From Escherichia coli (GTDB taxonomy: Bacteria; Pseudomonadota; Gammaproteobacteria; Enterobacterales; Enterobacteriaceae): a stretch of 64,000 bases of DNA. Positions 18,518-22,021 of this stretch are shown here, piece by piece. Each line of letters begins with the position of its first letter. The stretch's first letter is position 1. Below the pieces are notes generated by a model. It ran no database searches. It saw only the letters and a program-made list of their open reading frames with translations, and was not told the DNA's origin. The translations under genes were made by a program, and so were the position numbers. The stretch is taken from NCBI RefSeq assembly GCF_002854065.1, contig NZ_CP024147.1, one strand, 5' to 3'.

Positions 18518-18524
18518 ATATCAT

Positions 18525-18555
18525 TGCCGGATGCGTGCCATCCGGCAACATTTCA
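18525..18555. terminator. Hairpin between convergent yceA and yceI, putative bidirectional terminator
   Basis: Perfect stem TGCCGGATG/CATCCGGCA; weak U-tracts. Confidence 0.4.
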
Positions 18556-18878
18556 CTCTTACTTCTGCTGTACGCCTTCCACTGAAATAATCAGATCCAC
18601 TTCCTGAGAAGCTGGACCTAAATCTGTCTTGATATTGAAGTCCTTGAGCTTAATTTTGCCTTCGGCCTCGAAGCCTGCACGTTTACCACCCCACGGGTCG
18701 TCGCCCTGACCAATTAATTTCGCTTCCAGCGTGACGGGTTTGGTTACACCATTCAGCGTCAGATCGCCGGTAATATCCAGTTCGTCACCGTCTTTCTTCA
18801 CGCTGGTGGAGGTGAATGTTGCCTGTGGATATTTTGCGGTATTGAGGAAATCCGCACTGCGAAGATGTTTATCGCGTT

Positions 18879-18887
18879 CGGCGTGGT
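18879..18887. repeat. Target-site duplication (left) of IS1 copy 2: CGGCGTGGT
   Basis: Identical 9-mer abuts both ends (18879..18887 and 19656..19664). Confidence 0.92.
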
Positions 18888-18942
18888 GGTGATGCTGCCA
18901 ACTTACTGATTTAGTGTATGATGGTGTTTTTGAGGTGCTCCA

Positions 18943-19218
18943 GTGGCTTCTGTTTCTATCAGCTGTCCCTCCTGTTCAGCTACTGACGGGGTGGTGCGTA
19001 ACGGCAAAAGCACTGCCGGACATCAGCGCTATCTCTGCTCTCACTGCCGTAAAACATGGCAACTGCAGTTCACTTACACCGCTTCTCAACCCGGTACGCA
19101 CCAGAAAATCATTGATATGGCCATGAATGGCGTTGGATGCCGGGCAACCGCCCGCATTATGGGCGTTGGCCTCAACACGATTTTCCGCCATTTAAAAAAC
19201 TCAGGCCGCAGTCGGTAA
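18943..19218 (+). CDS. insA: IS1 InsA, 91 aa (copy 2)
   Basis: Identical translation to copy 1. Confidence 0.92.
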
Positions 19219-19640
19219 CCTCGCGCATACAGCCGGGCAGTGACGTCATCGTCTGCGCGGAAATGGACGAACAGTGGGGATACGTCGGGGCTAAATCGCG
19301 CCAGCGCTGGCTGTTTTACGCGTATGACAGTCTCCGGAAGACGGTTGTTGCGCACGTATTCGGTGAACGCACTATGGCGACGCTGGGGCGTCTTATGAGC
19401 CTGCTGTCACCCTTTGACGTGGTGATATGGATGACGGATGGCTGGCCGCTGTATGAATCCCGCCTGAAGGGAAAGCTGCACGTAATCAGCAAGCGATATA
19501 CGCAGCGAATTGAGCGGCATAACCTGAATCTGAGGCAGCACCTGGCACGGCTGGGACGGAAGTCGCTGTCGTTCTCAAAATCGGTGGAGCTGCATGACAA
19601 AGTCATCGGGCATTATCTGAACATAAAACACTATCAATAA
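19137..19640 (+). CDS. insB: IS1 InsB frame (copy 2; InsAB' by -1 frameshift)
   Basis: Identical to copy 1 except Ser instead of Arg at one position (...AYDSLRK... vs ...AYDRLRK...). Confidence 0.85.
19192..19200 (+). other. IS1 programmed -1 frameshift motif TTAAAAAAC (copy 2)
   Basis: A6C slippery run in the insA/insB overlap. Confidence 0.7.
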
Positions 19641-19655
19641 GTTGGAGTCATTACC

Positions 19656-19664
19656 CGGCGTGGT
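19656..19664. repeat. Target-site duplication (right) of IS1 copy 2: CGGCGTGGT
   Basis: Identical 9-mer abuts both ends. Confidence 0.92.
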
Positions 19665-19914
19665 TAGTATCGACGCTGGTGGTGTTAATTGTCACATTCA
19701 CTTTATCGGCAGCTGGATTTTTTTCATCAAAGGTAAAAGTACCGTCGAAATCTTTAAAGGTGCCATATAACCAGCTATAGCCAAGATGCTGGATGCGGAA
19801 GTTAACAAAGGCGTGCTGACCTTCTTTGTCAATTTTGTAATCGGCGGCAACCGCTGAACCGGCAGAGAACATCAGGGACGCGAAGGTTAAACCAAGCAGG
19901 CTTTTTTTCATTTT

Positions 19915-20481
19915 TTATACTCCATAGTCAGATGACGACTTTCCCAGCATGCGCTTCAGAGTGTCGTCTTTATCGATGAAATGATGCTTCAGGGCCATAA
20001 ATCCGTGCATAACGGACAGTACCACGACGCTCCACGCGAGCCAAAAATGCAGGGCACCGGCAAAGTCTGCCTGTGCGCCAGCGTCGGCAAGGGTCGCGGG
20101 GACGTCAAACCAGCCAAAAACGCTGATCGGTTTACCATCGGCAGTTGAGATCAGATAGCCGCTGATGCCGATGGCGAACAGCAATAGGTACAATGCGAGA
20201 TGTCCAGCTTTTGCGGCAAGACGAGTCATGGGCGAATAACTCGGCAGCGGACCCGGCGGTGGAGATATGACACGCCACAGAACGCGAATAACCAGCCCCA
20301 TCATTAATAAAATACCGATGCTTTTATGCAGTTCGGGTGCTTTGTGATACCAGCCATCGTAATAACTGAGCGTGACCATCCACAGACCTAAAGCAAACAT
20401 GCCGTAGACAATAATTGCGCTTAGCCAATGGAAGGCCGCAGATATAACACCATAGCGTTCAGGGGTATTTGTGAATGACAT
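19915..20481 (-). CDS. yceJ: Cytochrome b561 family protein YceJ, 188 aa
   Basis: ATG at 20481 (MSFTNTPERYGVISAAFHWL...); His-containing TM helices; immediately upstream of yceI in the same operon orientation. Confidence 0.9.
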   Translation of the reverse strand: MSFTNTPERYGVISAAFHWLSAIIVYGMFALGLWMVTLSYYDGWYHKAPELHKSIGILLMMGLVIRVLWRVISPPPGPLPSYSPMTRLAAKAGHLALYLLLFAIGISGYLISTADGKPISVFGWFDVPATLADAGAQADFAGALHFWLAWSVVVLSVMHGFMALKHHFIDKDDTLKRMLGKSSSDYGV

Positions 20482-20741
20482 AAGTGCATCCAAAACGAAT
20501 TTGCGAGAGAAAGAAAATGGCGTGTCGGAGAATGAATTGCAACACAAAAATAACAAATTGAATGATATTTATTTTTATTTCAATAATTTTGAATTAATAA
20601 TGAAAGAATCTTCATAAGTTTAGTGGGTTCAGCATCAGAGATGTCTGGTGAGTGCTGTAGAAGCAGGAATAATCTCATTCAATTTTTCACGCTAAATGAA
20701 AGGGAGATTAAATATTTGTCAGTTTATGTCAGTGCGGAAAA

Positions 20742-20902: not shown

Positions 20903-22021
20903 TTATTGGAAGCGGGAAAGCCTGAATGGCGTCAAATCAAAATCGCTTTTTTTGTCTTGCGCAAAATCGGCAGCTATTTCCCCTAAAACTGACGCAAATT
21001 TAAAACCGTGCCCACTCAGGCCGGTAATGAGCAGTGTATTATCGTAGCCGGGTAGGGTATCGATAATAAAATCTTCGTCAGGCGAATTATCATAGGTGCA
21101 GGCAGCGCCGTACAGGCAGCAACCGATACCCGGCAATACATTGCGCAAGAACGGGAAGGCTTCTGACCCATCACTGGCCACTTCCGCAAACGGAACACGT
21201 TCATCCGCTGAATGGATAACCTGGCCTCCGTTATGTTTGCCAATCTTCAACGCGTCGTTTTCTGCCGGAAAACCATAATATTGATCGCCATTGGGCAGTT
21301 CACCGGTAAACGCCGGGAATTTATTCTTCACGCTATAGCGGCCATCGGCCTGATACCAGGCAAATACTTTACGTACGGGCTGGACAGGCAGCTCCGGGAG
21401 CAGGTCTTTTACCCATGTTCCCGCGCAGACAATCGCTTTTTTCGCCTGATACTCACCATCAGCCGTTTCAATAGTTACGCCATCATCCTCATGACGAATT
21501 GCGGTGACCGGGCAGTTGAACAGTTGCGCACAGCCCGCTTCCTTCGCCAGTTGGATCCAGGTTTTAATCGCCAGTTCGCTGCGCAAAAAACCGGAATCAG
21601 TCTCAAATAAGCCGATGTAGTTGTCCGGGACGCGTATTTCTGGCCAGCGGGCCATAATCCCTTGCGCATCGAGCTTTTCAACGTTGAGTTGCCACTGTTC
21701 GGCGCTGTGGGCGACGTTGGCGAGAAATGCGGAGTCAGCCGGGCCAAGGTTAATGACACCAGAGCGTACAAAAATGGGATCATCTTCGTTGTGGCGGGAG
21801 AGGTCATCCCACAGCGTTTGTGCGCGGAGGACCAGCGGGACATACTTTTCGCCTTCACCATAAGCATGGCGAATTAATCGCGTATCGCCGTGGTGGCTGC
21901 CGTGTTGATGTGGTGGCATATGGGCGTCGGTCATAAGCACGTTTAAACCGGCGCGGGTTGCATAATACCCGGCGGCAGCGCCTACGGAACCGCTGCCAAT
22001 AATGATGAGATCGTATTTCAT
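20903..22021 (-). CDS. solA: N-methyl-L-tryptophan oxidase SolA, 372 aa
   Basis: FAD-binding [14 protein letters not shown]-terminus; full-length. Confidence 0.95.

Follow-up and report, generated by a model that had tools for sequence, protein, structure and literature searches.

A recent IS1 insertion splits yceI in a very small clade of Escherichia coli

The stretch of Escherichia coli DNA analyzed here, referred to below as the window, comprises 64,000 nucleotides and carries on its minus strand the operon yceJ-yceI, the second gene of which is interrupted by an insertion sequence. The upstream gene, yceJ (19915..20481, minus strand), encodes a cytochrome b561 family protein of 188 aa and lies 3 nt upstream of yceI, a gene order retained in all relatives examined. 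As interrupted, yceI extends over 18559..19911 (minus strand) and is divided into a 5' fragment (19651..19911, minus strand) and an orphaned 3' fragment that runs from codon 86 to the stop codon (18559..18887, minus strand). Between the two lies a complete IS1 of 768 bp (18888..19655, plus strand), antisense to yceI. A hairpin terminator past yceI (18522..18550, minus strand) is common to the convergent gene trhO, and the IS1 now stands between this terminator and yceJ. YceI is a periplasmic polyisoprenoid-binding protein that folds as an eight-stranded beta-barrel and is induced by high pH and osmotic shock, and its function is still poorly defined.

The first-pass annotation of this locus had identified the inserted element as IS1 with boundaries at 18888 and 19655, and both the identity and the boundaries, which enclose exactly 768 bp, are confirmed by its anatomy. 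The left terminal inverted repeat, IRL (18888..18910, plus strand), and the right one, IRR (19633..19655, plus strand), fit the family pattern of ~23-bp imperfect repeats starting with GGTRATG, and a script comparison of GGTGATGCTGCCAACTTACTGAT with the reverse-complemented GGTAATGACTCCAACTTATTGAT found agreement at 18 of 23 positions. IRL holds an inward-facing promoter-like site for insA (18895..18922). The insA gene (18943..19218, plus strand) encodes a 91-aa protein with a zinc ribbon and a helix-turn-helix (Pfam PF03811 and PF12759), and the overlapping insB' frame (19137..19640, plus strand), with its DDE transposase domain (PF03400, E=6e-78), is open and intact, placing both products in Pfam families of IS1. 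The motif TTTAAAAAAC (19191..19200, plus strand; IS position 304) is the A6C site of the programmed -1 frameshift that gives rise to the InsAB' transposase, a role that is established for IS1 and reflected in the 'programmed frameshift' annotations of RefSeq. The element is 99.87% identical to a copy in the E. coli genome CUWW06 that RefSeq annotates as 'IS1-like element IS1B family' and 98.96-99.74% identical to the IS1A/IS1B copies of loci L001, L008, and L009. Length, ends, overlapping ORFs with the A6C site, target-site duplication, and near-identity to annotated copies thus all correspond to those of the IS1 family and, with its ORFs and ends intact, this copy is plausibly competent for transposition.

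The element is flanked by two copies of the 9-bp sequence CGGCGTGGT, at 18879..18887 on the left and 19656..19664 on the right. The duplication is perfect, and a script check showed that the match stops at 9 bp on both sides. Counting both strands, CGGCGTGGT occurs at just three other places in the 64-kb window, and because the 9-mer is so rare there, two copies lying flush with the ends of the IS are not attributable to chance. The length agrees with the 8-9 bp expected for target-site duplications of IS1 (PMC5009759). In both CUWW06 and a second relative, strain 100416, the site is empty and holds a single CGGCGTGGT, and the BLAST-aligned flanks overlap by exactly 9 bp, as in CUWW06 (locus L004), where the two flanks of the window map to positions ending at 21179 and starting at 21171 of an intact yceI. 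The duplication described by the first-pass annotation is therefore present at both ends of the element and single in two relatives with an empty site. The junctions themselves are defined by two 31-mers, one joining CGCGTTCGGCGTGRT to GGTGATGCTGCCAACT and the other joining AGTTGGAGTCATTACC to CGGCGTGRTTAGTATC.

Removing the IS1 together with one repeat restores a 576-nt ORF of 191 aa that is identical to K-12 YceI (YCEI_ECOLI), matches PDB 1Y0G over residues 1-191 (E=2e-126), and matches PF04264 over residues 25-186 (E=2.9e-49). In the interrupted frame, the protein reads ...TNHA, ending at residue 85, followed by Gly and a TAA stop codon (19651..19653) within the right end of the IS1, as had been read from the sequence initially. 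The split was placed after codon 85 and, in strict terms, the first base of codon 86 also precedes the break. The resulting 86-aa ORF consists of the signal peptide, YceI residues 23-85, and the terminal Gly; the N-terminal 25 residues, judged by eye, resemble a typical Sec signal peptide with an AXA cleavage motif, which we take to be a putative one. Of ~162 domain residues, the truncated protein keeps 61 and has lost ~62%. Within the 3' fragment, no ORF is longer than one of 80 aa (from a GTG start at 18801), which has no signal peptide and is missing half of the barrel. The window thus holds YceI only as residues 1-85 plus Gly, with no intact beta-barrel ORF, and the locus is a pseudogene of the YceI family. 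That no functional YceI would be made, as previously proposed, is a safe inference with more than 60% of the domain absent and with the 3' ORF devoid of both a signal peptide and a detectable promoter; as the greater part of the beta-barrel is lost, the yceI::IS1 allele can safely be regarded as a predicted null.

The upstream gene, by comparison, has been spared. The reading frame of yceJ is uninterrupted over its 188 aa, its product belongs to PF01292 and matches CUWW06 WP_000011108.1, and positions 19665..20100 of the window equal CUWW06 base for base, in agreement with the original description of yceJ as intact. The sole nearby difference from CUWW06 is at 20627, upstream of yceJ. It was considered as a derived promoter SNP of yceJ, an idea that was rejected, as the G found here is the common state and the A is private to CUWW06. 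Since the yceJ-yceI operon ends with yceI and trhO is convergent, no downstream gene is exposed to polarity from the insertion.

The window contains another IS1, at 2941..3708 on the plus strand and hence in the same orientation as the copy in yceI, so the wording "second IS1" used in the first-pass annotation is accurate. This first copy lies in csgD and, with its duplications, occupies 2932..3717; its target-site duplication is CGTCCAGAG, distinct from CGGCGTGGT, and the yceI copy accordingly has a 9-bp duplication of its own, as had been noted. The gene csgD encodes the master regulator of curli and biofilm and is split by this element. The two IS1 copies, direct repeats that lie 15,947 bp from each other, are identical at 767 of 768 nt; they differ at IS position 444 (3384 in the csgD copy and 19331 in the yceI copy; G/T), a change of AGG to AGT that corresponds to R65S in InsB'. 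Because this one nonsynonymous base differs, the yceI copy is not a verbatim copy of its csgD neighbor. Were the csgD copy the donor of a local hop, ~0.15 differences would be predicted in 768 bp at the rate of 12 SNPs in 63 kb, compared with the one that was seen, a result that speaks neither for a local hop nor against it. The genes between the copies are csgBAC, ymdA, ymdB, clsC, mdoCGH, yceK, msyB, mdtG, lpxL, and trhO. With two direct IS1 copies on its borders, this 15-kb segment carrying curli, osmoregulated-glucan, and lpxL genes would be prone to deletion by IS1-IS1 recombination. Mobilization of the bracketed segment in the manner of Tn9 is likewise a potential of the arrangement, and neither deletion nor mobilization has occurred here.

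The comparison with reference loci and the population survey suggested at the outset were both carried out, and together they place the insertion in time. Among complete genomes, the nearest is CUWW06; the 64-kb window aligns with it collinearly over its entire length, with 12 SNPs, and the IS1 in yceI is the only structural difference between them. The csgD::IS1 insertion is common to the window and CUWW06, at the same position and base for base, whereas in strain 100416 the csgD and yceI sites are both empty; across the 15.2 kb that the IS1 copies enclose, the window shows 100% identity to both genomes. It follows from the presence of csgD::IS1 and an empty yceI site in CUWW06 that the yceI insertion is later than that in csgD. 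A K-12 background was considered for the window strain and rejected: its YceI protein is identical to that of K-12, but the best-matching complete genomes are CUWW06 and 100416. As csgD::IS1 is common to CUWW06 and absent in 100416, the clade formed by the window strain and CUWW06 is probably curli-negative. Across 5,426 complete RefSeq E. coli genomes, neither yceI IS1 junction was present as a contiguous match, and a protein look-up found the exact 86-aa product on only a few public contigs. One draft assembly, GCA_035821435.1, has an identical right junction on a contig that breaks inside the IS1, and 1 SNP over 10.3 kb separates this draft from the window. Recovery of the junction in this independent draft indicates a genuine insertion passed on by descent among a few close relatives. 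By these comparisons, yceI::IS1 is recent and confined to a very small clade, the window strain plus GCA_035821435.1.

We consider a simple, recent IS1 transposition into chromosomal E. coli yceI, yielding a null allele, to be by far the best account of the locus, with a probability of about 0.95 and no observation against it, and three other explanations were weighed against it on the structure of the locus itself. IS1 is a multi-copy element (a median of 10 places in each E. coli genome), and misjoins arise most often at repeats, so a copy misplaced during assembly is a natural concern; a misjoin, however, would not leave a precise 9-bp direct duplication at both ends of the IS, the right junction recurs in an independent draft of a near-identical strain, and an artefact is extremely unlikely. 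The ends of IS1 form hybrid promoters in some insertions, and the element might therefore act not as a null but as a neomorphic, regulatory insertion, either supplying an outward promoter to the 3' fragment of yceI or producing antisense RNA against yceJ and yceI. The insA promoter does aim, in antisense, at the 5' fragment and yceJ, but there is no promoter-like site leading out of IRL toward the 3' fragment, the region as a whole has 3 promoter-like sites against 3.2 in shuffled sequences, and a product of the 3' fragment would be limited to the signal-less half barrel described above. A regulatory role is thus very improbable. The least credible of these proposals, to which we give next to no weight, is that the 15.2-kb interval and the IS1 copies on either side of it constitute a composite transposon or a horizontally acquired block. 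The shared orientation, spacing, and near-identity of the copies are what such a unit would present, and two direct copies bracketing a segment are indeed the point of likeness to Tn9-type composite transposons. In those elements, though, a single duplication surrounds the whole unit and the cargo is foreign, whereas here each IS1 has its own (CGTCCAGAG or CGGCGTGGT), the "cargo" is native chromosome, and the pair has not moved as a unit: the interior keeps its synteny with relatives free of the IS, both it and the two outer flanks are collinear with genomes missing one or both copies, and CUWW06 carries the csgD copy alone, which makes the insertions sequential. The empty-site comparison thus refutes the composite reading.

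Loss of yceI in nature is not peculiar to this strain. Other yceI::IS1 alleles were found among complete E. coli genomes, in CUVET19-1426, W21, and LR881940, in WS0115A, and in ETEC1746; they agree with the present allele in element, gene, orientation, and the 9-bp length of the duplication, the junction queries being such that they could detect this orientation only. Their positions differ, lying at codons 8-11 (duplication CGAAGGTTA), near codon 140 (TAATTTCGC), and in the last codons (CGCCTTCCA), from which it follows that they are independent events. When the duplications are read in the orientation of the IS1 (window 18879..18887 and 2932..2940, L001 2817..2825, L008 824..832, and L009 824..832), four of the five, CGGCGTGGT, CGTCCAGAG, CGAAGGTTA, and CGCCTTCCA, start with CG, and the fifth is TAATTTCGC, a sample too small to interpret. 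A common natural allele involves a run of A residues at 19716..19724 (codons 63-65 of yceI), where a single-base frameshift leads to 70-aa products (proteins P0003 and P0004) that end in ...FDEKIQLPIK or ...FDEKIRLPIK and are present on 762 and 478 public contigs, Shiga toxin-producing E. coli included (e.g., ECSTEC94C_1263). YceI is cut early in this allele as well, although the cause is one-base slippage with no mobile element involved. In further E. coli assemblies, insertion sequences of other families were also detected inside yceI, a DDE_Tnp_1 element (IS4/IS5-type) in locus L014 and an IS3-family element (HTH_Tnp_1 and rve) in locus L017, and a look-up based on the ORF of the 3' fragment returned further nonsense and frameshift alleles. 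The commonness of the frameshift allele shows that yceI is dispensable in nature and, because the gene has been repeatedly inactivated across E. coli, we assume that yceI::IS1 is, in all likelihood, neutral or close to neutral. A literature search combining yceI and IS1 returned nothing relevant.

A second lineage has been hit at the very nucleotide interrupted in the window. In the Logan contig SRR10499913 (L003/L007), the right end of an IS1 joins yceI at the identical nucleotide (equivalent to 19655/19656) and in matching orientation. The background of this contig differs, being 97.6% identical to the window over 3.3 kb; its yceI allele differs at 12 nt, including one within the target (CGGCGTGAT), and also carries D124N. 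The complete genomes closest to the contig, EC28 among them, are 100% identical to it over 3.3 kb and have an intact yceI. A Shigella origin of the lineage was considered and rejected, since ordinary E. coli genomes, EC28 for example, match the contig with 100% identity. The insertion in SRR10499913 is best read as an independent hit at an identical site. This coincidence, together with the occurrence of at least five independent IS1 events within the 576 bp of yceI, raises the question of whether the recurrence is other than random and neutral, with the boundary of codons 85 and 86 acting as a true IS1 hot spot or with loss of YceI being positively selected. We regard this as unlikely. IS1 is reported to lack a clear target motif apart from a preference for AT-rich DNA and to favor local hops (PMC5009759); the yceI site is not AT-rich (47% AT, the 34th percentile of the locus), an IHF-like consensus is absent near it, and its resemblance to the ends of IS1 is no better than that of shuffled sequences (fractions of 0.23 and 0.97). 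By our own arithmetic, uniform insertion (~10 copies per genome x 576 bp / 5 Mb x 5,426 genomes) would place ~6 IS1 copies in yceI, whereas ~5 of the 5,426 genomes have one in or near the gene; IS1 hits in yceI show no sign of enrichment among complete genomes.

The same-site coincidence itself can be viewed in a similar way. Under uniform insertion, its chance is, as a rough estimate, 0.1-0.3. The look-up of the exact truncated product covered ~15 billion proteins, and any one combination of position and orientation is 1 of 1,152 such states in yceI; in a search of that size, one coincidence falls short of strong evidence for a hot spot. In addition, the left junction of the SRR10499913 lineage was not recovered through look-up of the 80-aa ORF of the 3' fragment in either allele, which returned frameshift, nonsense, scaffold-gap, and other-IS alleles and no IS1 at this site, and a scan of metagenomes for the right junction gave 0 matches. 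Chance is thus a sufficient explanation for the second lineage, given the size of the databases. More doubtful still is the specific proposal that IS1 prefers the codon 85/86 nucleotide as a target, which would have been hit independently and in the same orientation in two unrelated lineages although it is GC-rich and shows none of the recognized hot-spot features. If true, this would point to a determinant of IS1 targeting that has gone unrecognized (local DNA structure or access coupled to transcription, for example) or else to selection favoring loss of YceI.

Under our preferred reading, a simple and recent transposition, the course of events would follow established IS1 biology. The InsAB' transposase, produced by -1 frameshifting at the A6C site, would have bound the ends of the element and joined these to yceI DNA cut with a 9-bp stagger, and repair of the gaps would have generated the duplication. 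Translation of yceI would now stop after 85 native residues and the Gly at the TAA in the IS1 end, and no periplasmic polyisoprenoid-binding protein would be produced; yceJ remains coding, with its mRNA now expected to read into antisense IS1 rather than to its own terminator. In all of these respects, the allele resembles the IS1A/IS1B-type insertions that have created pseudogenes in E. coli and Shigella, in which an element of 768 bp with 23-bp imperfect repeats, insA and insB' linked by A6C, and a 9-bp duplication breaks a gene and contributes a stop codon from its end. There is no difference in kind, and only the target gene and the position are peculiar to this small clade. The insertion is therefore an ordinary, already-understood kind of mutation, and all elements of the first-pass annotation are borne out. 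It provides a clean lineage marker, and the series formed by strain 100416 (no IS1), CUWW06 (csgD::IS1), and the window strain (both) puts the two IS1 events in order and shows ongoing IS1 activity in the clade. As one more natural null allele of yceI, it supports the dispensability of the gene, with little import beyond the bookkeeping of strains.
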